A stretch of 13,034 bases of DNA from a virus (IMGVR_UViG_638341084_000022); one strand, 5' to 3'; counted from the stretch's first letter, positions 1 to 13,034 are shown. Notes: generated by a model not told the origin, from the sequence alone. Program-made: numbers and translations.

Positions 1-243
1 CTTTATCTGCTTCATGGCGGCAACAAGTTCAGAGGCAGGAACAACCTGTTCTCCGGCGGCGACAGCGGTAAGACTTCCTTCCTGGTATTGCTTACGCCAG
101 AGAAATAACTGGCTGGCTGCTACACCATGTTGCCGGGCAACGAGAGAGACCGTCATCCCCGGTTCAAAGCTCTGCTGAACAATTGCGATCTTTTCCTGTG
201 TGGTACGCCGTCTGCGTTTCTCCGGCCCTAAGACATCAATCAT
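1..243 (-). CDS. insC: IS2 OrfA (InsC) transposase N-terminal protein, 5' portion only (3' end outside window)
   Basis: Minus-strand ATG at 243-241. Translation [81 protein letters not shown] is the helix-turn-helix OrfA of IS2 as recalled. The frame is cut by the window edge. Confidence 0.85.
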
Positions 244-334
244 CTGTTCTCCAATGACTAGTCTAAAAACTAGTATTAAGACTATCACTTATTTAAGTGA
301 TACTGGTTGTCTGGAGATTCAGGGGGCCAGTCTA
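1..334 (-). mobile_element. IS2 (IS3 family) left end, partial; element continues beyond the window start
   Basis: Reverse complement of 294-334 reads TAGACTGGCCCCCTGAATCTCCAGACAACCAGTATCACTTAA..., which matches the IS2 left terminal inverted repeat as I recall it. It is followed by an orfA-type ORF. Identification is from memory of the IS2 sequence, not a search. Confidence 0.85.
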
Positions 335-814
335 ATTACTTTTTAATCTAAAATTGCTGCAATTAGATTCAATATCTTTATAAAGATGTAATCCTAACCC
401 ATCAATATGTCCGATGCGCGAACCATTTGAATAGAAGCTAATAATACCATCTCCATCTTGCCTAAATCCGGTGTCGTTATCTCCCAGAACAATGGAGTTT
501 TCACCCAGTGCGTTATCAGTAGCACCAATAGCTAGACCTCCTTCAATTTTGGCCCCGTGGCTGACATATATAGCACCTGTTCTTAGATTTATAGCGAATG
601 GCCTTAATGGGCCGATATCACCGTTTTCGCCTTGTCCTTCAGCCGTAGGGATGAAATGAAGGGACTCTTCTGAACGGCGGAAAATAAGACCGAAGGCATC
701 ATTAAAAATTCGCAGCGCATTCATCGTTCCAATTTTCAGTTCTCCGGTCATTTTATCGCCGGAACGCTGAACGGCGTTACCAGCCTTGTTTACCGTTTCC
801 TGTAAACCGAGGTT
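332..814 (-). CDS. phage tail-fibre variable C-terminal segment inside an invertible region; 3' end truncated by IS2
   Basis: The minus-strand frame is open from just below the in-frame TAA at 817-815 (inside the gix site) down to the TAG at 334-332. That TAG is formed by the first three bases of the IS2 terminus. The first ATG is at 751-749. The product is Gly/Asp/Asn-rich with short repeats (GAKIEGGLAIGATDNALGENSIVLGDNDTGF), as in variable C-terminal parts of Mu S / P1 S / e14 Stf-type fibres. Its position next to a gix site and invertase supports this. Family assignment is by eye. Confidence 0.5.
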   Translation of the reverse strand, partial: NLGLQETVNKAGNAVQRSGDKMTGELKIGTMNALRIFNDAFGLIFRRSEESLHFIPTAEGQGENGDIGPLRPFAINLRTGAIYVSHGAKIEGGLAIGATDNALGENSIVLGDNDTGFRQDGDGIISFYSNGSRIGHIDGLGLHLYKDIESNCSNFRLKSN

Positions 815-822
815 TTAGATAA
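797..822. promoter_or_regulatory. gix/cix/pix-type recombination (crossover) site for the adjacent invertase
   Basis: The 26-bp sequence TTCCTGTAAACCGAGGTTTTAGATAA is near-identical to the Gin/Cin/Pin crossover-site consensus as I recall it (TTCCTGTAAACCGAGGTTTTGGATAA), with imperfect dyad symmetry. It lies 55 bp upstream of the invertase start, as gixR does relative to gin in Mu. Confidence 0.75.
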
Positions 823-876
823 TGGCCGTTTCCGGCCTGCATGGCATGATTTGCGCTTTTGGACGGGAGATTCAGT

Positions 877-1467
877 GTGCTGATTGGTTATGTAAGGGTA
901 TCAACAAATGACCAGAATACAGACCTGCAACGAAACGCTCTTGTTTGTGCAGGATGTGAACAAATATTTGAAGATAAATTAAGCGGAACAAAGACAGACC
1001 GACCGGGATTAAAACGCGCTTTAAAGCAGCTTCAAAAAGGTGACACGCTGGTTGTCTGGAAACTGGATCGCCTTGGGCGAAGCATGAAACATCTGATTTC
1101 TCTCGTCGGAGAACTACGGGAGCGAGGGATTAATTTTCGCAGTCTGACCGACAGCATAGATACATCTTCTCCAATGGGGCGTTTTTTCTTCCACGTGATG
1201 GGTGCCCTGGCTGAAATGGAACGTGAATTAATTGTTGAACGTACACTGGCCGGACTGGCGGCAGCGCGCGCACGGGGGCGCACAGGCGGACGTCGACCGA
1301 AGCTGACAAAAGAACAGCATGAGCAAATAGCAAGGCTGATTAAAAACGGTCACGACAGAAAACAACTGGCAATAATTTACAGCATTGGTATATCGACAAT
1401 TTATCGTTACCACCCCGCAGGAGAATCAAGTGGAACAATTGAGAAGAGTAAACAAAATAACCGCTAA
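877..1467 (+). CDS. serine DNA invertase, Gin/Pin/Cin/Hin family
   Basis: Translation from GTG 877 is MLIGYVRVSTNDQNTDLQRNALVCAGCEQIFEDKLSGTKTDRPGLKRALKQLQKGDTLVVWKLDRLGRSMKHLISLVGELRERGINFRSLTDSIDTSSPMGRFFFHVMGALAEMERELIVERTLAGL..., nearly colinear with Gin/Pin as recalled, including the catalytic Ser in the VST motif. A GGGAGA Shine-Dalgarno sits 6 nt upstream of GTG 877. The ORF-track start at TTG 859 is probably too far upstream. Confidence 0.92.
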   Translation: MLIGYVRVSTNDQNTDLQRNALVCAGCEQIFEDKLSGTKTDRPGLKRALKQLQKGDTLVVWKLDRLGRSMKHLISLVGELRERGINFRSLTDSIDTSSPMGRFFFHVMGALAEMERELIVERTLAGLAAARARGRTGGRRPKLTKEQHEQIARLIKNGHDRKQLAIIYSIGISTIYRYHPAGESSGTIEKSKQNNR

Positions 1468-1492
1468 TCTGGCCATTAGCGGTTTTTGTGTT
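1461..1492. terminator. bidirectional intrinsic terminator between the convergent invertase and gpU genes
   Basis: Stem CCGCTAAT (1461-1468), loop CTGGCC, stem ATTAGCGG (1475-1482), followed by TTTTTGTGTT on the plus strand. The minus strand has an A/T-rich tail after the same hairpin. It overlaps the invertase stop codon and lies 4 nt from the gpU stop. Confidence 0.5.
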
Positions 1493-1495
1493 AAA

Positions 1496-1984
1496 TCAGA
1501 ACAGCCCTTTAACGGAGCTGGCCGCGCTGTTAAGGGATGATGTGACCTTATCTTTGAAGCCGGACAGCATATCACTGAACGATGAGGATTGCAGGCGTTC
1601 CCGCAAATCCTCATCGCAGCGTTCAAGAGTCAGTGAAAACTCTATCTTTTTCGCCTTGCCGTAGCGATCAAACTCGGAACGGGTCGTATTCGTTTCAGTC
1701 AGTACATACATGCCGTAAATCTGCCCGACACCATCAATCAGAGGCCAGGGGCGTCCTGTATATGCCTGCGTGGTCAGCAACGAAAGCGACACTTCGCCAC
1801 CTGTAATTTCAGGATAAAGCACGCCGGAAAGCACGATGCGATCATCACCTGCGCCGATATACTGCCAGCTTGCTGAACGGTTAACGCGTTCATTTTTCAC
1901 ATGCCGCCAGCTTTTGTTTTGCTGTAACTGCTGATGCGGCAATGTGCGCAGCTCAAAAACAAACATGCCGTAGATCATCATCAT
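1496..1984 (-). CDS. U: P2 gpU-like tail protein
   Basis: An ORF of about 160 aa immediately downstream of the tape-measure gene, as in the P2 FETUD arrangement. Start is probably the ATG at 1984 (MMMIYGMFVFELRT...), which gives 8-nt spacing from a GAGGAG Shine-Dalgarno that overlaps the T stop. The ORF-track start at 1990 has too short a spacing. Confidence 0.8.
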   Translation of the reverse strand: MMMIYGMFVFELRTLPHQQLQQNKSWRHVKNERVNRSASWQYIGAGDDRIVLSGVLYPEITGGEVSLSLLTTQAYTGRPWPLIDGVGQIYGMYVLTETNTTRSEFDRYGKAKKIEFSLTLERCDEDLRERLQSSSFSDMLSGFKDKVTSSLNSAASSVKGLF

Positions 1985-1996
1985 GGCCATGACTCC

Positions 1997-4819
1997 TCAA
2001 TCTTTATCGTAAAAACTGCCACGCCCGGCACGGGCGCGCCGTTCCATTTCTGCCCTGACCATTTCGCCAATCAGTTTCGCCAGTTCGCGGGGATTCTGTG
2101 TAACAACGTTATGCAGATGAACATGAATTTCACCGCAAAATCCGGAGGCAACAGGCTCCCGGTTACGGGAAGTTGCAGGAACTGATGCCACTGGCGATCG
2201 TATAGCCTCCGCCACCGGGCGGGAGCTGGCCGCAACAACAGGGACCAGCGCCGGAGGCAGCGGAGCCGGAACCACGGGTGTGATAGTAATTGCGGGGGCA
2301 GGCTTACTGACCTGCGCAATCTTCCGCTCCTGCCACTCCCCACGAACAGCAAGTGCGCGGGGCAGGTTCTTAAAGACAATATCGCCGGGGCCAATGCGTT
2401 TTTTCGTCTCATCAACCAGCTTACCTGTGTTATCAGCAATTTTGCTGAGTCTGCGTAGCGTACCGGTATTGTTGTCTGTGAGCGGTTTGTTGTCTCTGGG
2501 TTTATCGCCTTTTTTGTCGTCGACCTTATCTGACGGGGCCGGGCCGGGAGTCCATGGTTTCTGAACCATTTTCTTGAGAACCGGATCCCATTCCCACATT
2601 ACAGGAGCCTTTGAAGCGTTCTCTATTTTCTTTCTCGCCCGTTCCGCTTCATCCGGAAGCACTCCGAGCTTTTCAAGTATCCACGCCAGTGAATCCATCA
2701 ATGCTTTTGTTGGCGTCAGGACAAGCTCTATCGCTCCACCGAGTACCCTGCCGAATACCTCGCCAGCACTGGTACATTTATCCAGCGTTTCCTTGCTGGA
2801 CTCCATCGGTGACAGCAGCGATTTAAACCAGTTAAAGACCTGAATAATCCCATCGCGCACGACATCAAAAACTGGACCGAACCGTTCAAAGGTTTCGCGC
2901 AACGGAGCCAGCCGTTCCATAATCCCACTGAACACCCCTGCATAAAACGCCTTGATGGGTTCCCAGTATTTCCAGATGAGAACCGCCGCAGCCACAAACG
3001 CAGCAGCAATCAATCCGACCGGGCTGAACAGCGCCCCGATAGCGCCCCCCAGTAACGAAACGGAACCCGTCACCATTCCCCATAGTGCTGGCAGGAGCCT
3101 GACAGCATTCATTGATCCGGTCAGGAGGGAAAAGCCAAGACGCAGTTTTGCCAGCGGGCCAGCAAGCACACCAATAGCCAACGACAACGAGCCGACCGTT
3201 GCAGTCATCGCCAGCAATGCCCCACCTGCAATCAGTAGCTGGCGCGTCAGTGCCGGATGGGCCTGCGCCAGCGCCGTCACCTTTGATACCACCCGCGTGA
3301 GCCACTGCGTGACAGAACGCAGCGGACCGTCAATCAGATCTGCAATGCGGATGCGCAACCCTTCCCATGCACTGCCGAGTGATTTCAGATCGCCGTCAAG
3401 GTTGTTGGCCATAACCTTTGCTGTGCGTTCAGCCTCACCGCGCGCGCCTTCAAGTTCTTTTCTCAGTTTGGGTAAGGAGCCGTCACCCGCTGCATCAACG
3501 AGCGCCATAAACGATGTGAAAGCCTCTTCTCCGGCAATGTCCTTAAAGAACGATACCCGGTCAACTTCCCCGTATTTGCGGGTGGCTTTATAAAGGTCGG
3601 CCAGTACATCCTCCATCGGGCGCATTTTGCCGTTCGCGTCAGAGACAGCCACACCCAGCTCTTTCAGCGCCTCTGCTGCCGCCTTTGGCGGTGATGCCAG
3701 ACGAGCCAGGCTGGCACGCATTGCCGTCCCGGCATCACTCCCTCTGATGCCCATATTCGCCAGCACGCCCGCCATCGCAGCGGCCTGCTCCAGCGATATT
3801 CCCAGCTTACCCGCCACCGGACCTGCATATTTCATGGTTTCGCCCAGCGCGCGAAGGTCAGTGTTGGTACGGGTAAACGCCGCTGTAAGCGTGTCGCCAA
3901 CCCGGTCCATCTGGTCAGCAGAGAGGCCGAACTGCGTCAGGATATTTGAGCCAATATCCGCCGTCTCGCCGAGATCCATACCGCCAGCCGTTGCCATGCT
4001 CAGCACGCCGGGAAGCGCAGCCTGAATGGCCTGCGGAGTAAAACCAGCCATTGCAAGAAATGCCTGTCCACTGGCGGCATCTCCAGCGGTGAACTGCGTT
4101 TCAGAGCCAAGTTTTAACGCCTGCTCACGCAGCGCCTTAAACTGTGGGCTGTTTTTGTCGATTCGCGTCAGTGCCTGAACGCGGGACATCTCTTTCCCGA
4201 ACCCAATCGCGGGCTGCAAAAAACGCCCGGCAGCATAGCCGCCCGCCGCTGCCGCACCTGTTGCCAGTGCACCACCTGTTTTCAGTTTTCCCGCGGTTTC
4301 CTGCGCGCGCGAATACCGCTCACGCGCCCGCGTTACACGCGCAAGCGCCTGCCGTTCGCGTTCAAGCTGGTTGTTGTACTGTTCGGTGCGTCTGATGGCC
4401 TGTTGAATGGTGTTATCGCTGCCTGTCAGGGAAATGCCGTGGCGTTTCAGCTCTCCGCCAAGCTCCCGCATTTTCTGAATCTCCCGTGTGCGCGATTCAT
4501 TCAGGCGTTCAAGCCGGGTGCTTAACTGCTGCATCAGCTTTTGTTGTTTTTCGCTGAGCACTGTACCCGTGTGTTGTAACTGATTAAGGGCGTTAAGCTG
4601 GCGTCGAGCTTTCAATATGCCAGCATCCGCTTTACTGACAGCGTCACGGGCGCGCTCAAATGAACGCGCCTGACGCTCGAGATTTTTGATCGCCCCCTGC
4701 GTTCGCTGGATGGAGTCACCAAACTGCCCCATCAGGCGGCGGGCGTTTTCGGCAGGCCGGGTCAGCCTGTCAACGGCGCTGAAAGCGACCCGGATATCAA
4801 GAGTCTTCATTGTCTGCAT
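1997..4819 (-). CDS. T: phage tail tape measure protein (P2 gpT-like)
   Basis: A 940-949 aa ORF with coiled-coil N-terminal part and the conserved central tape-measure region (...LTQFGLSADQMDRVGDTLTAAFTRTNTDLRALGETMKYAGPVAGKLGISLEQAAAMAGVLANMGIRGSDAGTAMRA...). It sits between the chaperone E/E' and U. Start is uncertain: GTG 4846, ATG 4819 or ATG 4810 are all possible, and the 5' end overlaps the end of the E' frame. Confidence 0.9.
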   Translation of the reverse strand: MQTMKTLDIRVAFSAVDRLTRPAENARRLMGQFGDSIQRTQGAIKNLERQARSFERARDAVSKADAGILKARRQLNALNQLQHTGTVLSEKQQKLMQQLSTRLERLNESRTREIQKMRELGGELKRHGISLTGSDNTIQQAIRRTEQYNNQLERERQALARVTRARERYSRAQETAGKLKTGGALATGAAAAGGYAAGRFLQPAIGFGKEMSRVQALTRIDKNSPQFKALREQALKLGSETQFTAGDAASGQAFLAMAGFTPQAIQAALPGVLSMATAGGMDLGETADIGSNILTQFGLSADQMDRVGDTLTAAFTRTNTDLRALGETMKYAGPVAGKLGISLEQAAAMAGVLANMGIRGSDAGTAMRASLARLASPPKAAAEALKELGVAVSDANGKMRPMEDVLADLYKATRKYGEVDRVSFFKDIAGEEAFTSFMALVDAAGDGSLPKLRKELEGARGEAERTAKVMANNLDGDLKSLGSAWEGLRIRIADLIDGPLRSVTQWLTRVVSKVTALAQAHPALTRQLLIAGGALLAMTATVGSLSLAIGVLAGPLAKLRLGFSLLTGSMNAVRLLPALWGMVTGSVSLLGGAIGALFSPVGLIAAAFVAAAVLIWKYWEPIKAFYAGVFSGIMERLAPLRETFERFGPVFDVVRDGIIQVFNWFKSLLSPMESSKETLDKCTSAGEVFGRVLGGAIELVLTPTKALMDSLAWILEKLGVLPDEAERARKKIENASKAPVMWEWDPVLKKMVQKPWTPGPAPSDKVDDKKGDKPRDNKPLTDNNTGTLRRLSKIADNTGKLVDETKKRIGPGDIVFKNLPRALAVRGEWQERKIAQVSKPAPAITITPVVPAPLPPALVPVVAASSRPVAEAIRSPVASVPATSRNREPVASGFCGEIHVHLHNVVTQNPRELAKLIGEMVRAEMERRARAGRGSFYDKD

Positions 4820-5335
4820 TCCCGCTGCGAAGTGCCGCCCGCTCACGCCAGCTAACCACTTCGCCGGGCGTCATCATGAAGATTTCGGCGGGCGACCAGT
4901 TAAAAATAACGGCAATATCCGCCACCAGATCTTCGATGTGCTCAAAGCACACCAGGGTGATTACGCTGCCGTCTCCTGCACGCTCTTCGCGCCAGAGTCT
5001 GGCTCGCTCATAAAATTTACAGCCACAGCGCACAACTGAATAAAATCGCGTGACGACATTTTTTTAATCATCACTTCATCCAGTCGTGGCGAGGTCACGC
5101 GAGGCAACAGCGTGAACATGGTATCCGCTTTCAGATTCAGCACATCAGACAGCGACAGACCACGCAGGGATCCAGCCTGTTCAATAGCCCCGGTGATCTC
5201 CACATACGTGATTTTTTCGCCACCACGCTCAATGGGTCGGGTCAGTTTTACGCCATGTTCGACAGCCATATCCTCACCTGCCGTCACATCATCCGCCACG
5301 GTGTTATTCCGGGTTTCAGTATCGATGTCTTTCAT
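4797..5335 (-). CDS. E': gpE+E' tail assembly chaperone, programmed -1 frameshift fusion product (shift at the A7 tract 5065-5059)
   Basis: The -1 frame relative to E opens immediately after a TAA at 5066-5064 and runs to a stop at 4799-4797, overlapping the T start. The shift site AUU AAA AAA AUG is at codons 91-92 of E. Position between tail tube and tape measure matches the conserved G/GT-type frameshift of tailed phages (P2 E/E'). Confidence 0.55.
4961..5335 (-). CDS. E: gpE-like tail assembly chaperone (zero-frame product)
   Basis: A 124-aa acidic ORF with a strong AAGGAG Shine-Dalgarno upstream of ATG 5335, located between FII and T as in P2. Confidence 0.7.
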   Translation of the reverse strand: MKDIDTETRNNTVADDVTAGEDMAVEHGVKLTRPIERGGEKITYVEITGAIEQAGSLRGLSLSDVLNLKADTMFTLLPRVTSPRLDEVMIKKMSSRDFIQLCAVAVNFMSEPDSGAKSVQETAA

Positions 5336-5390
5336 CAGTTTTCTCCTTTTCAGTCAGAGGCGACGCACTGCGCCGCCTGCATATTACTTA

Positions 5391-5903
5391 TCAGCCAAGC
5401 CCAAGCGCGGAACGGATACGGTCAGGCACAATGTCCTTGCCGTCCTTCCGGTAGATGTGGTTCAACAGGTCGATTTCCCACAGCGGGCGATCGTTAACGC
5501 TCAGCTTGTAGTAGGTGTTTTTGACAGCGTAAGTGTGTGATGTGGCTTCGCCCTGTTTGGCCTCCCCCATATCAATTTCCGTCACACGCCCGCGCATCTC
5601 GATTTCATACAGATCGCTTTCTGCATCGGTGTAGTATTCACCCGCAAAACGCAGCAGCGTGCCGTCAATCGTGCCGCCATATTTAAGGAACAGCGCACGA
5701 ACAGCTCCCCCCATAACAAAACTCGCATCAAGCGCGGAGTCGTCCAGACCGAGATCAATACTTACCGCCCCCATCATGCCACCACCACGATAGCTGTCGG
5801 TTTTGCGCGTCAGTTTGGGCGGCGTGACGGACGTCACCTTACCCACTTCGTTTTCACCATCCACAAACAGCGTAAAAAAGCGAAGATGTTTTGGTACAGC
5901 CAT
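5391..5903 (-). CDS. FII: phage tail tube protein (P2 gpFII-like)
   Basis: A 170-aa ORF (MAVPKHLRFFTLFVDGENEVGKVTSVTPPKLTRKTDSYRGGGMMGAVSIDLGLDD...) that resembles P2 FII as recalled, in both length and motifs. Its start codon overlaps the FI stop (TGATG). Confidence 0.9.
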   Translation of the reverse strand: MAVPKHLRFFTLFVDGENEVGKVTSVTPPKLTRKTDSYRGGGMMGAVSIDLGLDDSALDASFVMGGAVRALFLKYGGTIDGTLLRFAGEYYTDAESDLYEIEMRGRVTEIDMGEAKQGEATSHTYAVKNTYYKLSVNDRPLWEIDLLNHIYRKDGKDIVPDRIRSALGLG

Positions 5904-7087
5904 CAGGCACCTCCCAGCACCGCAAATGCGGGACCAAAGAATTCATCAGTAAACGACTGGTAAAGCTCCATGTCTTCCAGCGGCGGAACGGGCGTATATT
6001 TGTAGCGAATACGCACACGCCCCTGACGTAAATTCGTGGTGCTGTTATCCACGATGTCATACCAGCACTCCGCGCCAATCAGTTTCCCGGCAGTAACCAG
6101 TGAATCCAGTTTTGCCCTGATGGCACTGATAACATCCTTCACGTTCGCAGGCGTCAGTGGACTGTCGATGGTTTCAAACTGCGCTTCCGCAATTGAATCA
6201 GCCAGCACCTGTGCGGTTCGGGTATACACCTCAAAAATGTAGGCGTTCGTTTCCGGTGTGCGGTTGCCCCAGAAGCGGAACCCGTTGCGACGAATAATGG
6301 TCGTGATTTCTTTGTTGTTGAGGCTGTTGGCATCGCTGTCTTCGGCCTGCAACGACCAGAACACATGCCTCGACATCCCCAGCACATTTTTAACCGGAAC
6401 GTTGGACAGCGATTTGTGCCAGCCCTGCTCATGGTCAATGTACGCACGAAGGCCGCACGCATAAGCAGGCGCGGGGAACGTTTCGTTTTCGCCACTTTTC
6501 GGGTTGTAGGCGATGAAGTCCGGCCATAAGAGCATCACTTCACGTTCGTTGAATTTCTGGCGGTAGGTAATCGCTTCAGCCATCGTGTTACAGCCGTGAC
6601 ATGAGGCATACACAAATGCGCGCAGTTTACCCGCAATCACGCACAGGGATTTTGTCACCGCCTCCGTGTCCAGCTCCGGCGCGGCCAGAATACGCGGACG
6701 GTATCCGATGCTTTCATCCTGCTCTGCAACAAGCAGCGCATACATCCCCGTATAGCTGCCGTCATCCTCAGAACCACCGATAACCAGTTGATCCTGCGTC
6801 TTTCCGTCTTCTTCTTTGTGTTCAGCCACGCGAACGACGATCACCTTTGTGCTCACCTGGTCTGCGATGGCCTTAAGCGCACGATAAAGCGTCCCCGTTG
6901 TTCCGCATTTTCCCAGCACGTCATTGACGCGGGTCAGCAGTGTGGGCTTGTTCAGCGGGAACAGCTTCGCGTCCGCATCATCCGCCGTTGCCACGATACC
7001 GATAACGCTGGAATCAACATCGTTAATCGCTGTTACCAGGTCGGTATTTTCCGTAACACGGGCACCATGAAAACGAGTTTCACTCAT
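5903..7087 (-). CDS. FI: phage contractile tail sheath protein (P2 gpFI-like)
   Basis: A 394-aa ORF with motifs I recall from P2 FI (...KLRAFVYASCHG..., ...WPDFIAYNP..., ...GWHKSLSNVPV..., ...IRRNGFRFWGNRT..., ...YKYTPVPPLEDM...). Confidence 0.92.
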   Translation of the reverse strand: MSETRFHGARVTENTDLVTAINDVDSSVIGIVATADDADAKLFPLNKPTLLTRVNDVLGKCGTTGTLYRALKAIADQVSTKVIVVRVAEHKEEDGKTQDQLVIGGSEDDGSYTGMYALLVAEQDESIGYRPRILAAPELDTEAVTKSLCVIAGKLRAFVYASCHGCNTMAEAITYRQKFNEREVMLLWPDFIAYNPKSGENETFPAPAYACGLRAYIDHEQGWHKSLSNVPVKNVLGMSRHVFWSLQAEDSDANSLNNKEITTIIRRNGFRFWGNRTPETNAYIFEVYTRTAQVLADSIAEAQFETIDSPLTPANVKDVISAIRAKLDSLVTAGKLIGAECWYDIVDNSTTNLRQGRVRIRYKYTPVPPLEDMELYQSFTDEFFGPAFAVLGGA

Positions 7088-7243
7088 AGCTTCAGCCCCT
7101 TGTATCCGTTAAATGATTCGGCAACAATCATCACCCACCACGCGCGTAATCTCACCCCTGCGCCGTTCTCCCGACCCGGCGACAACAAAAAGCAGTAACC
7201 CCCTCCGCACGCACATGCGACCATGCCGCACAGGGAGGGAAAG

Positions 7244-8353
7244 ATGACCGACACCACCATGCAATTGCTCAGTCAGAGCACAGACCCCGTGAAAATGCCG
7301 GATTTTGATATTCTCGCGGAGGGTAAAACGCTGTCAGGCGTGGCAGAGCGCCTGATGAGCCTGTCACTGACCGACAACCGGGGATTTGAAGCGGACCAGC
7401 TCACCATCACGCTGGATGATGCGGATGGTCAGTTGCAGCTACCGCCACGGGGCGCGCGCCTGACGGTTCTCATTGGCTGGAAAGGCGAACCGCTGACAGA
7501 AAAAGGCTCTTACATTGTCGATGAAATCGCACACGAAGGACCGCCGGACAGGCTGACTGTTTCAGCCAGAAGCGCAGATTTTCGGGATGAATTTAACGTT
7601 AAACGTGAGGTGTCCTGGCATGATGTGACCGTTGAGCGTGTGGTATCCGCCATCGCTCATCGGTACGGTCTGAAACCGCAAATCAGCGAAATGCTGATGC
7701 ATATCGAAATCGACCACGCCGACCAGACCGAAGAAAGTGACATGTCCTTCCTTACGCGCATGGCGGAAATGCTGGGCGCAATCACCACGGTAAAAAGCGG
7801 TAATCTGTTATTCATCATGCCCGGCGGTGGCGTGAACGCACAGGGCCAGCCGTTGCCATCGTTCGCCATCACACGCAGCAGCGGCGATCGCCATCAGTTC
7901 CGCATTGCTGACCGCGAGGCGTATACGGGGGTACGCGCTTACTGGCTTGATCTTAATTACGGGAAAAAGAAAAAAGTCAGCGTGAAACGCCGCAAACCGC
8001 CAAAACCCAAAAAGGAGAAAAGCAGCAGCCGTGAAGGTGATTATATGGAAGGCGCGGAAGGCAATGTGTTTGTGTTACGCAAGACTTATCAGAACGAGCA
8101 GGCAGCAAGACGCGCAGCGGCGGCAAAGTGGCAGCAGCTACAACGCGGAGCCGCATCATTCTCCATCATGCTGGCACGCGGACGCGCAGAACTCTACCCC
8201 GAAATGCATGGCACGGTAACAGGCTTTAAAAGCGAGATTGATAATCAGGACTGGATTATTGCAAAAGCCGAGCACACCATTGATAACAGCGGCTTTACCA
8301 CACAGCTTGAGCTTGAGGCAAAAATCCCGGAATGGATAGCAGAAACAGAGTGA
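7244..8353 (+). CDS. D: P2 gpD-like tail protein (late gene D), full length
   Basis: Translation (...LSLTDNRGFEADQLTITLDDADGQ..., ...VDEIAHEGPPDRLTVSARSADFRDEFNVKREVSWHD..., ...DREAYTGVRAYWLD..., ...GEYMAGEA-like GDYMEGAEGNVF...) is colinear with P2 gpD as recalled. The second ATG at 7244 has a GGGAGGG Shine-Dalgarno; the ORF-track start at 7223 is probably too far upstream. Confidence 0.88.
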   Translation: MTDTTMQLLSQSTDPVKMPDFDILAEGKTLSGVAERLMSLSLTDNRGFEADQLTITLDDADGQLQLPPRGARLTVLIGWKGEPLTEKGSYIVDEIAHEGPPDRLTVSARSADFRDEFNVKREVSWHDVTVERVVSAIAHRYGLKPQISEMLMHIEIDHADQTEESDMSFLTRMAEMLGAITTVKSGNLLFIMPGGGVNAQGQPLPSFAITRSSGDRHQFRIADREAYTGVRAYWLDLNYGKKKKVSVKRRKPPKPKKEKSSSREGDYMEGAEGNVFVLRKTYQNEQAARRAAAAKWQQLQRGAASFSIMLARGRAELYPEMHGTVTGFKSEIDNQDWIIAKAEHTIDNSGFTTQLELEAKIPEWIAETE

Positions 8354-8421
8354 GCAACTTAGACATATTAGCTCAGACTTAAACTGGCAAGTTTACAGTA
8401 TAGAATTAAACATAAACGACG

Positions 8422-8453
8422 GTCCGCTCCGTGTCAGAAGCGGACTTTGTCAT
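8422..8453. terminator. weak hairpin between convergent D and cargo gene; possible terminator
   Basis: Stem GTCCGCT (8422-8428), 10-nt loop, stem AGCGGAC (8439-8445), followed by TTTGTCAT. The stem is short and the loop large, so this is a weak call. Confidence 0.3.
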
Positions 8454-8473
8454 CCCTATGTAAGGTTGATTGC

Positions 8474-9496
8474 TTAATACGCATTTAATTTAAATTTGTA
8501 TTTGCCTTCTATGTAATGGATAAATTCAATTATGCTTTTTTCTATCGCATCTAATATATGAATATATCCATCCCGATTTAAGGTCCTATCCAACTCAAAG
8601 TGATGAACTATCCCATGTCTATATTGTATGATTTCAGAAATTCGATTCTCAAGAAAATCAACTGATTTTCCAATTCTTTTTTTCTTATAAAGAATCGCTC
8701 TCACATCTATATCCAGCCACTCTTTATATGCTTTATTTAGGTGGGTTAAGTTTTGAAAAGTGTAATTTCTTGCAATAACACTTTCTATTGAAATATTTCC
8801 TTTCTCTATCTCAAGCAGAATATCAAAATCAACTTTTTGCTTATACGATGTTCTTTTTGCTATTGCGAAAGGATCGTACTTTATAAGTATTTGAAAAGCT
8901 CTAGAGAAAAAATATTCAAACATAGCAACCGCAAAAGGTACTAATCCATTATATATAACTCTACTGGGATCCATACATTGCATGTAATCAAAGTATTCGG
9001 ATAAGCCGCCATCTTCCGGTAGGTTTAATTTAATAGAAGGTTCAGGTAAGGCATGTTTAACAGCGGAAATCTCATGATGGACATGATTAAATATTGAAGA
9101 AATGCCACGACTGATCGGACTACTAGAATCCTTCCATAGAGGAGCGTACCTATTTTTCCCATAATCACCTATAAGTGTTCCACCAAAAAGACTCCGTGCG
9201 CCTTTTAGAACATCATTAAGCATTTTTACATCATGCCAACTAGCGCTATATAAATTACGCACATGCAATGCCCATTTATTACCAGATATGTGTAGTTCGT
9301 CATTTGAAACAGGATATATATCAGCCGAAACTCCATCTGTAGATTTGAAGTCCGTATCATCAAACCAAGAGTAATTCAACGTTCCTTGGGGCCATTCCCA
9401 CAAATGTTTACACCTTTTAAAACCTAAATTTTCAAGGTAATTTTTAAGTTCGTTTCTAGTTGCTTTTTTAGGGTACAGCGTTATATCTCTTCCCAT
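8474..9496 (-). CDS. hypothetical protein, AT-rich cargo gene inserted between D and ogr; possible HEPN-like C-terminal domain
   Basis: An uninterrupted 340-codon ORF with an AGGTGA Shine-Dalgarno about 8 nt upstream of ATG 9496. It is visibly more AT-rich than the flanking tail genes and uses AGA/ATA codons. The C-terminal region has an R-x4-H arrangement (QYRHGIVHH, residues 293-298, nt 8620-8603) followed by a predicted final helix, as in HEPN nuclease domains. I recognise no family with confidence. Confidence 0.75.
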   Translation of the reverse strand: MGRDITLYPKKATRNELKNYLENLGFKRCKHLWEWPQGTLNYSWFDDTDFKSTDGVSADIYPVSNDELHISGNKWALHVRNLYSASWHDVKMLNDVLKGARSLFGGTLIGDYGKNRYAPLWKDSSSPISRGISSIFNHVHHEISAVKHALPEPSIKLNLPEDGGLSEYFDYMQCMDPSRVIYNGLVPFAVAMFEYFFSRAFQILIKYDPFAIAKRTSYKQKVDFDILLEIEKGNISIESVIARNYTFQNLTHLNKAYKEWLDIDVRAILYKKKRIGKSVDFLENRISEIIQYRHGIVHHFELDRTLNRDGYIHILDAIEKSIIEFIHYIEGKYKFKLNAY

Positions 9497-9687
9497 GCTT
9501 TATTCACCTGATATACAATATTTTAAATTTTAACTATTATGAACGTATGAATTTTCACATTGGATGTATGGAAGTTCAACAACTATTGAAAGTTCAATTT
9601 TCACTCTTCGCACAGAGCGAGCTGTTAGTTGGAATTAGGGATCGTACAATCTAGAATAGCGGCAACACCACGTTAAGGGAGGTCGCT

Positions 9688-9948
9688 ATGTTCCGTTGTC
9701 CGCTTTGTGCCGCATCTGCCCGTATCCGCACAAGTCGTCCGGAAAATGATTCAAACACCGTGCGGCAAAAATATTACCAGTGTAACAATCTGGAATGCGG
9801 CGTATGCTTCTCAACACTGGAAGCTTTCCATAAATTCACATCGAAACACGCCTCCGGCGTTCACTCTTCAGAAGGTATCCCGTGGCATGAGCTACCAGCT
9901 TCACACAGGGGAAACAATCAGATGAGTTTGCCTTTACCTAAGAATTAA
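9688..9948 (+). CDS. ogr: Ogr/Delta-family zinc-finger late transcription activator
   Basis: MFRCPLCAASARIRTSRPENDSNTVRQKYYQCNNLECGVCFSTLEAF... carries the C-x2-C...C-x4-C zinc-binding pattern and the RTSR motif I recall from P2 Ogr. An AAGGGAGG Shine-Dalgarno sits 5 nt upstream, with a TACAAT -10-like hexamer at 9645-9650. Location downstream of D matches P2. Confidence 0.85.
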   Translation: MFRCPLCAASARIRTSRPENDSNTVRQKYYQCNNLECGVCFSTLEAFHKFTSKHASGVHSSEGIPWHELPASHRGNNQMSLPLPKN

Positions 9949-9957
9949 CAAGCAGAA

Positions 9958-9986
9958 TTGCCGGAGTAACAAAAAAGCGATAGATT
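9958..9986 (+). promoter_or_regulatory. candidate sigma70 promoter for the hok-like mRNA
   Basis: TTGCCG (9958-9963), a 17-bp spacer, then TAGATT (9981-9986). The predicted start near 9993 coincides with the 5' element GGGTGCCTT that is complementary to the 3' end of the locus. Hexamers are weak matches. Confidence 0.3.
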
Positions 9987-10138
9987 ACGCGCGGGTGCCT
10001 TTCGGCTGATGGTCGGAGGGAATACCCGAAGGCCAGATGTGGAAAGGCCCCGGAAAACACTTTTGTTTAACCGAGGCCCTAACCGTCTACCCTAAGCAAG
10101 TGAAAGGTTAGCGCCTCTCCGGAAAAGGAGCAAGTGCT

Positions 10139-10279
10139 ATGTCGCAAAAATCGCTTACAGCCATCACGTTCTGCGTGACGGTAATCCTCATCATCTGGAT
10201 GTTGCACGGTTCGCTGTGCGAAATACGGATGAGTTTCTGGGGAGCGGAGTTTGCGGCGTTCTTACAGTGTAAGCAGTAA
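10139..10279 (+). CDS. Hok/Gef-family type I toxin (46 aa small membrane peptide)
   Basis: This small ORF is not in the six-frame track (under 60 aa). Translation is MSQKSLTAITFCVTVILIIWMLHGSLCEIRMSFWGAEFAAFLQCKQ: an N-terminal transmembrane helix, then the SLCE(I/L) motif and an AAFL-x-CK tail, as in HokA/Hok as recalled. An AAGGAG Shine-Dalgarno sits 8 nt upstream. Fold-back complementarity of the mRNA ends supports a hok-type locus (see findings). Confidence 0.7.
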   Translation: MSQKSLTAITFCVTVILIIWMLHGSLCEIRMSFWGAEFAAFLQCKQ

Positions 10280-10288
10280 GGAAACCGC

Positions 10289-10310
10289 GACGGGGGAGTA
10301 ATCCCCCGTC
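10289..10310 (+). other. perfect 9-bp stem-loop with GUAA tetraloop immediately 3' of the hok-like ORF
   Basis: GACGGGGGA (10289-10297), loop GTAA, TCCCCCGTC (10302-10310). No U-tract follows, so this is more likely an mRNA structural or stability element than a terminator. Confidence 0.5.
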
Positions 10311-10360
10311 AATCGGTTGCCAGGGTAAGGTCGATAAGGCACCCTATCTCACGGCTCTAA

Positions 10361-10540: not shown

Positions 10541-10873
10541 ATGGCATTAATCAAATGTCCTGAATGCCAGAAAGAGGTGAGCGATTCAGCATTGTATTGC
10601 CCTGCTTGCGGTAAACAAATAAAAAAACTTAAGCGTTCATTTTTTGGAAAGCTCATTAAGTGGATTTTTATATTATTTAATATTTTTATGATCTATACGC
10701 TTTTAGTTGGACTGGGAGGCACTAGTGAAATAATAAATAATGCAACATCCGATGCCGAAAAAGCCGGTGTAGTTATTGGTACAGGCTTAGGTTTAATTAC
10801 CATTGGAAGTTTATGGGTTATTGGCGATATCATTATCGGAATTTTAGTGTTTCTTACTAAACCAAAAGGATAA
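10541..10873 (+). CDS. small zinc-ribbon membrane protein (CxxC-x10-CxxC N-terminus, two predicted TM helices)
   Basis: MALIKCPECQKEVSDSALYCPACGK..., followed by two hydrophobic stretches (IKWIFILFNIFMIYTLLVGLGG and VVIGTGLGLITIGSLWVIGDIIIGILVFL). An AGGAGG Shine-Dalgarno sits 8 nt upstream. The gene is AT-rich. Confidence 0.7.
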   Translation: MALIKCPECQKEVSDSALYCPACGKQIKKLKRSFFGKLIKWIFILFNIFMIYTLLVGLGGTSEIINNATSDAEKAGVVIGTGLGLITIGSLWVIGDIIIGILVFLTKPKG

Positions 10874-10877
10874 CAAA

Positions 10878-11771
10878 ATGAAAAATATAATTTTTTCTAT
10901 AGGTGCATCATTTATATCAATTAGTGTACTGCCTGTTCACGCAGCAACTGAACATAATAACTTCAATGCAGTACTCCAGTGCCGAGCAATAGAAAATAAT
11001 AAAGACAGACTTTCTTGTTACGATAAGTCAATACAACCGACTCGAACGAAAGTTGCTGAAAAATTCGAAAGCAGAGATCAATGCCCTGATGAGAAAGATG
11101 ATGACAGACGTTTATCTTGTTATGATCGTTTTTTTTCTCCAACATTTACTCCATCTGTAAACTCAAAATCTAAAACGGAAAAGCCAGTAACAACAGAGGC
11201 TCAGCAACCAAATCTTTCTGAGATATCTAAATGCCGAGCAGAAAATGATAAAGAAGCCAGACTAAACTGCTACGATAAACTATTCCCACAGGATAAAGCT
11301 GTTCAAGCTGAATCAAAATTAGAGAAAGCCACAGATGTAGGAAAATGGCACACATCCATTACTACATCGCCAATTGATGATTCGAAAAATGTAATTTTAT
11401 CGTTAGAAAGTGATGATTATATCAGAACTCCATTTGGAGAAGCGGTTACTCCTACTCTGTTTATAGCTTGCCGAGAAAAGAAAACCGAAGTATTTCTTAG
11501 TTGGGATGTATATTTAGGCCTTGAACAAACCAGCATGCTTTATCGTCTTGATAAACAGAAAGCAGTTGAGCGAAACTGGCTAGTATCTACAGATACAAAG
11601 GCTGTTTTTTATAAAGGTAATGACATTGATTTCATCCGAAAACTAGCCAACTCAAACAAAATGTATACAAAAATAACTCCTTATAATGAGAGCCCTGTAA
11701 GTGCAACTTTCAATTTAAACGGCCTGTCAAACGCGCTAAAACCACTTCAAGCTGCTTGTAACTGGAAATAG
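10878..11771 (+). CDS. secreted protein with three tandem Cys-containing repeats (C-x8-RL[SN]CYD[KR]) and a C-terminal domain of unknown function
   Basis: Sec-type signal peptide (MKNIIFSIGASFISISVLPVHA / ATE). Repeats lie at residues 35-50, 69-84 and 119-134 (nt 10980-11279). It starts 4 nt after the zinc-ribbon gene stop, with an AAGGA Shine-Dalgarno, so is likely co-transcribed. The gene is AT-rich. Confidence 0.75.
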   Translation: MKNIIFSIGASFISISVLPVHAATEHNNFNAVLQCRAIENNKDRLSCYDKSIQPTRTKVAEKFESRDQCPDEKDDDRRLSCYDRFFSPTFTPSVNSKSKTEKPVTTEAQQPNLSEISKCRAENDKEARLNCYDKLFPQDKAVQAESKLEKATDVGKWHTSITTSPIDDSKNVILSLESDDYIRTPFGEAVTPTLFIACREKKTEVFLSWDVYLGLEQTSMLYRLDKQKAVERNWLVSTDTKAVFYKGNDIDFIRKLANSNKMYTKITPYNESPVSATFNLNGLSNALKPLQAACNWK

Positions 11772-12038: not shown

Positions 12039-13034
12039 ATGATACAACCTATTTCCGGCCCTCCTCCTGGGCAACCACCAGGTCAGGGAGATAACCTGCC
12101 GTCTGGCGCGGGCAATCAGCCTTTATCCAGTCAGCAACGTACTTCGCTGGAAAGCTTAATGACGAAAGTGACCTCACTGACGCAACAACAAAGAGCAGAA
12201 CTGTGGGCGGGTATCAGGCACGATATTGGTCTGTCGGGAGATTCACCGCTGCTTTCGCGTCACTTCCCTGCCGCTGAGCATAATCTGGCGCAACGTCTGC
12301 TGGCCGCGCAAAAAAGCCATTCTGCCCGCCAGCTTTTAGCGCAATTAGGGGAGTATTTACGTCTGGGGAATAATCGTCAGGCGGTCACGGATTATATCCG
12401 TCATAACTTTGGTCAGACGCCGCTGAATCAGCTCTCACCGGAGCAATTAAAAACCATTCTCACCCTGTTGCAGGAAGGGAAGATGGTTATTCCGCAACCA
12501 CAGCAGCGCGAGGCGACCGACCGTCCTTTATTACCGGCGGAGCACAATGCGCTAAAACAGCTGGTGACCAAACTTGCGGCGGCAACGGGGGAACCCAGCA
12601 AACAGATCTGGCAATCGATGCTGGAACTTTCCGGGGTGAAAGATGGCGAGTTAATTCCAGCGAAACTGTTTAACCATCTGGTGACCTGGTTGCAGGCGCG
12701 CCAGACGTTAAGCCAGCAAAATACGCCGACGCTGGAATCACTACAGATGGCGCTAAAACAACCTTTAGATGCCAGTGAACTGGCGGCGTTATCGGCATAT
12801 ATCCAGCAAAAATATGGCCTTTCTGCGCAATCATCGCTTTCTTCTGCCCAGGCCGAGGATATTCTTAATCAGCTTTATCAACGGCGGGTTAAAGGGATTG
12901 ATCCGCGTGATATGCAACCGCTGCTTAATCCTTTTCCACCGATGATGGACACGTTGCAAAATATGGCAACGCGTCCCGCGCTGTGGATACTGTTAGTCGC
13001 GATTATCCTGATGCTGGTCTGGCTGGTTCGTTAG
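12039..13034 (+). CDS. flk: flagellar regulator Flk (C-terminally membrane-anchored)
   Basis: A 331-aa ORF with a Pro/Gln-rich N-terminus (MIQPISGPPPGQPPGQGDNLP...) and a C-terminal hydrophobic anchor (PALWILLVAIILMLVWLVR), matching enterobacterial Flk as recalled. An AAGGA Shine-Dalgarno sits 7 nt upstream. Typical GC-rich host codon usage. Confidence 0.75.
   Translation: MIQPISGPPPGQPPGQGDNLPSGAGNQPLSSQQRTSLESLMTKVTSLTQQQRAELWAGIRHDIGLSGDSPLLSRHFPAAEHNLAQRLLAAQKSHSARQLLAQLGEYLRLGNNRQAVTDYIRHNFGQTPLNQLSPEQLKTILTLLQEGKMVIPQPQQREATDRPLLPAEHNALKQLVTKLAAATGEPSKQIWQSMLELSGVKDGELIPAKLFNHLVTWLQARQTLSQQNTPTLESLQMALKQPLDASELAALSAYIQQKYGLSAQSSLSSAQAEDILNQLYQRRVKGIDPRDMQPLLNPFPPMMDTLQNMATRPALWILLVAIILMLVWLVR

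Follow-up and report, generated by a model that had tools for sequence, protein, structure and literature searches.

In phage P2, the F operon has the order PF-FI-FII-E-E'-T-U-D and is followed by ogr; all of these genes are co-directional, with D in last place on the transcript from the late promoter PF. The P2 record further carries a single feature, annotated as 'activator binding site; pO, pP promoters' (3057-3087), which lies between divergent transcription starts at 3016 and 3127; the dyad of this PP/PO region is centred at 3071.5, i.e. 55.5 nt from each of the two starts. In Smp131, PP' (4398-4381) and PO' (4381-4398) have been assigned to one palindromic site in a paper that also repeats the TGT-N12-ACA consensus for the four late promoters of P2 (PMC3931495). 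The phages P88, PhiSM and SEN4/5 have been characterized as viable viruses: P88 is inducible and plaque-forming with a burst size of ~65 (PMC5285337), PhiSM is spontaneously released and both forms plaques on and lysogenises K-12 (PMC6456863), and SEN4/5 is a plaque-forming myovirus (PMC5261728). The inverted tail-gene order described here is already known from such published viable phages; neither the inversion nor a promoter between FI and D finds mention in the P88, PhiSM and SEN4/5 papers.

The window analysed here, i.e. the whole stretch of 13,034 nucleotides from the viral sequence IMGVR_UViG_638341084_000022, codes for a complete P2-like late tail module comprising FI, FII, E/E', T, U, D and an Ogr/Delta protein, with Pfam and PHROG matches for every gene. 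Its features, other than the promoter elements treated below, are:

332-751, minus strand: C-terminal segment of a tail fibre, an alternative end (PHROG tail fibre families, E 3e-46)
797-822, plus strand: gix-type crossover site TTCCTGTAAACCGAGGTTTTAGATAA, the right edge of the tail-fibre invertible segment
877-1467, plus strand: Gin/Hin-family serine DNA invertase (Pfam Resolvase, 1e-50, and HTH_7)
1459-1484, both strands: bidirectional intrinsic terminator with a 10-bp stem and T-runs on either strand
1496-1990, minus strand: gpU tail protein (Pfam Phage_P2_GpU, 5e-39; 99% identity with P88 U)
1997-4846, minus strand: ORF of the gpT tape measure protein (Pfam PhageMin_Tail, 2e-58; ORF start at GTG 4846)
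4797-5335, minus strand: gpE (4961-5335) with the E' extension reaching to 4797 (PHROG tail protein, 1e-36)
5391-5903, minus strand: gpFII tail tube protein (Pfam Phage_tube, 2e-45)
5903-7087, minus strand: gpFI tail sheath protein (Pfam sheath domains; 98% identity with P88)
7244-8353, plus strand: gpD baseplate hub/late control D protein (Pfam Phage_GPD; PHROG 52, 4e-164; 98% to P88 D)
8364-9651: low-GC cassette of 1,288 bp between D and ogr (GC 31-38%), with an ORF on the minus strand
9688-9948, plus strand: ogr-type zinc-finger late activator (Pfam Ogr_Delta, 1e-12)
10139-10279: Hok-family toxin gene
10541-11771: zinc-ribbon gene and VasI/TagO-like gene

The open reading frames and Pfam matches bear out the strand assignments of the initial annotation, with FI through U on the minus strand, D and ogr on the plus strand, and an FI-D gap of 156 bp (7088-7243). 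Comparison of the gene order with that of P2 likewise upholds its view that a block of about 5.6 kb, from FI to U, is inverted; the block measures 5,592 bp (1496-7087). At the U end, the invertase and gpU converge across a bidirectional terminator as originally described: the hairpin at 1459-1484 has folding energies of -14.8 and -16.1 kcal/mol (z -4.7 and -5.2), and this terminator is common to the invertase and the leftward tail operon. The invertase ORF of the six-frame list extends over 859-1467, its real start being the GTG at 877 (MLIGYVRV). The true start of gpT is likely ATG 4810, if it is compared with the 14-nt E'/T overlap of P88. E' would be a -1 frameshift extension: frame -1 contains an unbroken E'-like ORF, and a candidate slippery heptamer, A_AAT_TTT at 5018-5012, is the predicted site of the E/E' frameshift. 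D starts at ATG 7244, which has a GGGAGGG Shine-Dalgarno sequence, as against ATG 7223, which has none. The Ogr homologue displays a CX2C-X24-CX4C motif and 42% identity to P2 Ogr over 53 aa. The chromosomal gene flk begins at 12039. A scan of the window with Rfam gave no match at the gathering score, neither to Sok nor to any other known RNA.

Megablast searches of phage records recovered matches to the window at 94-96% identity from P88 (Xuanwuvirus), 500465-2, Citrobacter phage PhiSM, P884B11, PhiR44_2 and Chuche, all of which have the same gene order and strands. The matches to P88, PhiSM and P884B11 extend over 63-75% of the window, and coverage by 500465-2 is 92%. In the annotated genome of P88 (NC_026014), the tail fibre and invertible fibre genes, the invertase (+), U-T-E'-E-FII-FI (-) and D (+) reproduce the layout of the window; minus-strand tail-fibre and assembly genes equivalent to 332-751 are found in P88, 500465-2 and Escherichia coli IHE3034. 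In the latter, a complete P88-like prophage with a single set of structural genes lies beside flk, and the module forms its right end. Across 121 complete E. coli genomes, 80% or more of the window is present in one place.

The next-closest phages were collected by tblastn searches with D, and their gene order was determined by local tblastn of the window proteins against their genomes. The inverted order was recovered in the Klebsiella phages Kp4871-3 (Reginaelenavirus, D 73% identical) and Kp4847-1 (Reipivirus, D 72% identical), and in the Salmonella phage SEN5 (Senquatrovirus, D 63% identical), for which the deposited annotation concurs. P2, RE2010 (Felsduovirus) and 500465-1 (Wadgaonvirus), with D 49-53% identical, are co-directional, and so are the distant Peduoviridae PHL101, phiE202 and Smp131. 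A D-based scan of one genome per bacterial species yielded 80 loci with a D alignment, which separate cleanly: wherever D is at least 60% identical (62 loci), U-, T-, E-, FII- and FI- precede D+ and ogr+, and wherever it is at most 54% identical (18 loci), the P2 order is present. The genera with inverted loci include Salmonella, Citrobacter, Enterobacter, Klebsiella, Serratia, Erwinia, Pantoea and Pectobacterium, as well as Brenneria, Edwardsiella, Xenorhabdus, Photorhabdus, Providencia, Morganella, Hafnia and Yersinia. Neighbour-joining trees were built for D and FI with Smp131 as the root; in both, the inverted set came out as monophyletic (30/30 bootstraps in each), and the D and FI of the window fall inside this group.

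The monophyly of the inverted set, taken together with the co-directional outgroups, argues for a single ancient inversion, and the simplest reading would be that it occurred once in the ancestor of the clade and has been inherited since. The inverted order is the ancestral, fixed plan of the P88-like clade (Xuanwuvirus, Senquatrovirus, Reginaelenavirus and Reipivirus). We also sought a scar of the inversion in the C-terminus of U and the N-terminus of D; both vary across all lineages and are uninformative in this regard.

With FI-U inverted relative to P2, D is off the F-operon transcript, which cannot serve it; hence D requires a promoter of its own, as the initial annotation had already concluded. 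That annotation had also reported no TGT-N12-ACA dyad in 7088-7243, which holds literally, but a dyad with one mismatch was overlooked; the inference from the lack of a dyad was misleading since a conserved Ogr-type element is present in the gap. The elements that we recognize there are:

7132-7127, minus strand: GATGAT, predicted -10 of PF, the leftward late promoter (start predicted near 7120)
7167-7184: Ogr-type activator dyad TCT-N12-ACA, centre 7175.5 (on the minus strand GTTGT-N12-AGAAC, 7165-7186)
7216-7224, plus strand: TG-c-GACCAT, predicted extended -10 of PD, a rightward promoter for D (start predicted near 7231)

The one mismatch to TGT-N12-ACA is in the left arm of the dyad (TCT), and its centre lies 88.5 nt from the ATG of FI. 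Among the relatives, the FI-D gaps are mostly of 145-167 bp (n=67). A single T[GC]T-N12-ACA box, centred 78.5-88.5 nt from the FI ATG, is present in 60 of these 67 gaps and in the window; the remaining seven are without a box by the exact pattern. The 12-nt spacer of the dyad is freely variable among the relatives. A perfect TGT-N12-ACA occupies the homologous position in SEN5 and Kp4871-3, and the same TCT variant of the dyad recurs in the divergent P/O region of P88. The left arms of the P/O and FI/D boxes agree within each genome (TCT/TCT in P88 and Kp4847-1, TGT/TGT in Kp4871-3), and this match within three genomes fits a single activator that would read both sites.

To examine the flanks, 60 unique sequences of relatives were stacked on the box without gaps and nAnnnT hexamers were scored by their offset. 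In 57 of the 60 sequences the FI side has such a hexamer with its end at 48.5 nt from the dyad centre; the D side has one at the same distance in 54, preceded by TG-n in 38 of them; at any other offset the hexamer occurs in at most 11. The candidate promoters fit a weak -10 element at fixed spacing, with no good -35 element. In the relatives with the P2 order, the PF box lies 79.5-85.5 nt from FI, and a check of these phages for a divergent promoter upstream of the box found nothing conserved there, which suggests that the D-side half is specific to the inverted clade. Some features count against a shared dyad: seven of the 67 gaps are without the box, the left arm carries the TCT mismatch, the predicted leader of D is short (~13 nt), and the extended -10 could act without an activator. 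On the basis of conservation and geometry, from which the shared-dyad model is derived, D is probably activated by Ogr from the dyad that it shares with FI.

Other explanations of the layout, some of them raised in the initial annotation, can be weighed against this background. Convergent and divergent gene blocks may arise when prophages come to lie side by side or when reads are misassembled, and the window could in principle join two degraded prophages tail-to-tail or be an assembly artefact. We give this practically no credence: these junctions are also present in plaque-forming phages, each packaged as one genome (P88, PhiSM, SEN4/5), as well as in the 121 complete chromosomes of E. coli and dozens of further genera, and each tail gene of the window is single-copy and full length with respect to P88. 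The viability of P88 and PhiSM excludes both the artefact and the two-remnant junction. A local or recent inversion fares little better, the same divergent FI/D order being found in related intact P2-like phages that form a monophyletic clade. In its most explicit form, i.e. recent or ongoing site-specific inversion of FI-U by the adjacent Gin/Pin-type invertase, it draws on the position of the invertase, right beside the U end of the block, and on the ability of serine invertases to invert multi-kb segments; yet it appears highly improbable to us. In DNA, the invertase region matches the gin genes of Mu, D108 and SfMu at 91-96% identity (91-95% for Mu and D108), and the Mu record has a 'G-segment boundary' feature beneath its match to window 782-1256. 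The gix-type site at 797-822 (one mismatch to the gix sequence) is located beyond the invertase as seen from the FI-U block, with the alternative fibre segment on its other side. It is the sole match in the window, with none expected by chance, in a search with the full 26-mer allowing up to three mismatches; the gix core AAACCNNGGTTT, with up to two mismatches, matches elsewhere at chance level (7 found versus 6.8 expected). At 1468-1495 and 7088-7243, the two regions earlier proposed for inspection, there is no gix site and no flanking inverted repeat, gix-like cores do not exceed chance, and no inverted repeat pairs one region with the other. All 68 of the 68 clade loci and phages examined have FI-U in one orientation. 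Most members of the clade are without an invertase: one was detected next to U in only eight of the 62 inverted loci, it is absent from SEN5, Kp4871-3 and Kp4847-1 despite their inverted block, and none was detected in two loci with 98% D identity (L009, L010). Conversely, 500465-1 has an invertase in the equivalent position yet retains the P2 order, as do the loci L069 and L086. The placement of gix, the chance-level cores and the lack of a linking inverted repeat indicate that the invertase serves a leftward tail-fibre switch; it is an independent accessory of sporadic occurrence, and the tail-fibre segment on its left is all that it flips. As separate observations, we attribute to chance a 16-nt match of 2486-2501, within T, to the dyad region (7174-7189), and comparison of window 1-796 with E. 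coli genomes, in search of the opposite fibre orientation, returned only mosaic tail-fibre matches to 333-796.

A third alternative accepts the ancestral order but has D transcribed from an extended -10 independently of Ogr, with the dyad serving PF only. Extended -10 promoters can function without a -35 element or an activator, the TGn motif on the D side of the above 38 relatives would suit such a promoter, and a virion requires few copies of D. Against this, the distance from the dyad centre to the D-side hexamer is fixed at 48.5 nt, equal to that on the FI side and to the PO spacing of P2, despite the divergence of the flanks, and it would be unusual for a lysogen to express a tail hub gene without regulation. 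We therefore consider this alternative unlikely, albeit far less so than the preceding two.

The explanation that we favour, and hold to be quite likely as a whole, combines a P88-like prophage end beside flk, an inherited order that goes back to an inversion which happened only once, an uninvolved invertase and a predicted bidirectional Ogr-type promoter between FI and D. The window is the right end of a P88-like prophage (Xuanwuvirus, Peduoviridae) inserted beside flk, and the FI-U block would have been inverted once, along with its late promoter PF, in an ancestor with the P2 order. The 156-bp FI-D gap would then constitute a bidirectional late-promoter region built like PP/PO of P2, in which one Ogr-type dyad (7167-7184) is predicted to lie ~55 nt upstream of two divergent starts. 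The leftward PF would transcribe FI through U and end at the terminator at 1459-1484, and a clade-specific rightward PD, with its extended -10, would transcribe D; in relatives without the cassette, PD probably continues into ogr. The more specific proposition, that throughout the P88-like clade one quasi-palindromic Ogr box drives both PF and PD, that PD defines a 1.1-kb D-ogr unit and that late control was rewired in this way, seems to us evenly balanced between being right and wrong.

The junction of D and ogr bears on the latter proposition. In most members of the clade ogr follows ~40-70 bp after D (in P88 it starts 42 bp past D), and in most clade loci it lies ~1.1-1.2 kb from the start of the D match, i.e. 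close behind D. With ogr in this position, the rightward late promoter probably transcribes it too. In the window the two genes are separated by the low-GC cassette, whose homology breakpoints with respect to P88 fall inside the 42-bp D-ogr gap of that phage. The cassette encodes a 340-aa protein (8474-9496, minus strand) with an Rx4H motif (RHGIVH) and a weak match, below the cut-off, to Pfam HEPN_RiboL-PSP; searches of this protein against PADLOC, PHROGs, NCBIfam and PDB sequences found nothing. The cassette also contains a hairpin at 8422-8445, and a promoter-like TTGGAA-17-TAGAAT is present at 9629-9657 ahead of ogr. The cassette and its hairpin probably uncouple D from ogr in the window.

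As to its significance, this analysis is mainly a correction: an order that looks rearranged against the textbook map of P2 is the standard layout of a widespread clade, and to flag it as a local inversion, a junction of remnants or the result of invertase activity would be wrong. How FI-U is oriented with respect to D is instead a clean marker, of single origin, that divides the clade from the phages with the P2 order. The only added value lies in the putative bidirectional late promoter with its shared dyad, and the conserved, symmetric FI/D region offers a natural test of whether one Ogr-type site can serve two promoters after a rearrangement. If the proposed D-ogr unit is real, the positive-feedback loop of Ogr would be much shorter than in P2, where it depends on read-through from PF; by reusing the symmetry of an activator site that already existed, the inversion would have rewired the control of the late genes, and the cassette in the window would have broken the coupling of D and ogr.

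Comparison with the known systems sets these features in relation to each other. The G segment with gin in Mu, the C segment with cin in P1 and pin of e14 have a near-identical invertase and gix and alternative fibre ends on the opposite strand; a switch of this type accounts only for the region left of 822, and the FI-U block lies outside it. P88 (Xuanwuvirus P88), along with PhiSM, P884B11 and 500465-2, is the nearest counterpart, with ~95% DNA identity over 782-10350 or further, an order and strands of the genes from the invertase through U, T, E', E, FII, FI and D to ogr identical to those of the window, and an FI-D intergenic sequence that differs by a few bases. P88 differs in having neither the 1.29-kb D-ogr cassette nor the zinc-ribbon/TagO pair, both present in the window, and in its tail-fibre cassette left of the gix site; moreover, its E and T are only 74% and 92% identical to those of the window, which points to local mosaicism. 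The F operon of P2 comprises the same gene set as the window, at 33-49% protein identity, and its PF dyad is 82.5 nt from the FI ATG as against 88.5 nt in the window; whereas D is there served by the PF transcript, FI-U and PF are inverted in the window and D is divergent, and whereas P2 is without an invertase, the window has one. Finally, PP/PO of P2 is the counterpart of the predicted promoter region: a single dyad sits midway between divergent late promoters, with -10 elements at ~48 nt and starts at ~55 nt, and the geometry in the window is alike, the difference being that the P2 site serves P and O, while that of the window would serve FI and D from starts that are predicted.

A difference from phage P88 lies between D, the baseplate hub/late control gene, and ogr, the gene for the zinc-finger late activator: in P88 these genes are separated by a gap of 42 bp, whereas in the window a cassette sits exactly within the corresponding gap:

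8364-9651, low-GC cassette of 1.29 kb (31-38% GC)
8474-9496 (minus strand), ORF within the cassette, encoding a protein of 340 aa

The product displays an Rx4H motif (RHGIVH) at its C-terminal end and a weak, below cut-off match to the Pfam HEPN_RiboL-PSP model; searches of PADLOC, PHROGs, NCBIfam and PDB sequences recovered no match. The cassette is 100% identical in the near relative phage 500465-2 and is also found in the P88-like prophage of E. coli IHE3034. The 340-aa ORF is a candidate for a HEPN-type gene of defence or abortive infection carried by the phage.

Relative to P88, the tail gene E (4961-5335, minus strand) is 74% and the tape-measure gene T (1997-4846, minus strand) 92% identical, against 96-99% for the rest of the tail block, and this local drop indicates a recombinational patch within the chaperone and tape-measure region. 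The P88 tape-measure gene further contains, on the antisense strand (28823-28844), a third exact copy of the Ogr-type dyad GTTGT-N12-AGAAC, which is absent from T of the window; with a chance expectation of about 0.07 copies per genome, it may be either a chance occurrence or an internal site. In IHE3034, D is annotated as a shortened ORF of 786 bp with a pseudogene fragment upstream (24693-25537 of its locus); the prophage is otherwise complete, and this copy may be tail-defective.

This E. coli-type prophage module, with a D protein about 98% identical to that of the window, is also present on a chromosome labelled Salmonella enterica (CP191473.1) and on a contig assigned to the Firmicute Vagococcus sp. 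(NZ_JBQPOM010000071.1); the Vagococcus record appears to be contaminated or mislabelled.

At the left end, the window contains a single gix site (797-822), and the invertible tail-fibre segment thus continues past that end. The stretch 333-796 is 94-100% identical to tail-fibre cassettes found in P1-like plasmids and in numerous prophages that are otherwise unrelated, in contrast to the remainder of the window, for which the matches are P88-like phages. As a module, the fibre tip is exchanged freely.

Beyond ogr, two further features are found:

10139-10279, Hok-family toxin ORF of 46 aa (NCBIfam HokA, 6e-9, below cut-off)
10541-11771, low-GC pair of a zinc-ribbon gene and a VasI/TagO-like gene

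Counterparts of the former are annotated as Hok/Gef in the P88 and IHE3034 records, and an Rfam scan of the window yielded neither Sok nor any other RNA at the gathering score. The VasI/TagO-like protein matches Pfam VasI (3e-25), with an NCBIfam match below cut-off. The pair occupies the equivalent position in Klebsiella, Raoultella, Brenneria and Salmonella relatives, while a Pantoea locus carries the TagO-like gene without its zinc-ribbon partner, at identities of 40-72% (loci L004, 33596-34826, L033, L038, L042, L047, L054 and L067). In the P88-like prophage clade the right end thus carries a T6SS-accessory-like gene as a conserved cargo. P88 itself lacks the pair, whereas the window has both genes.
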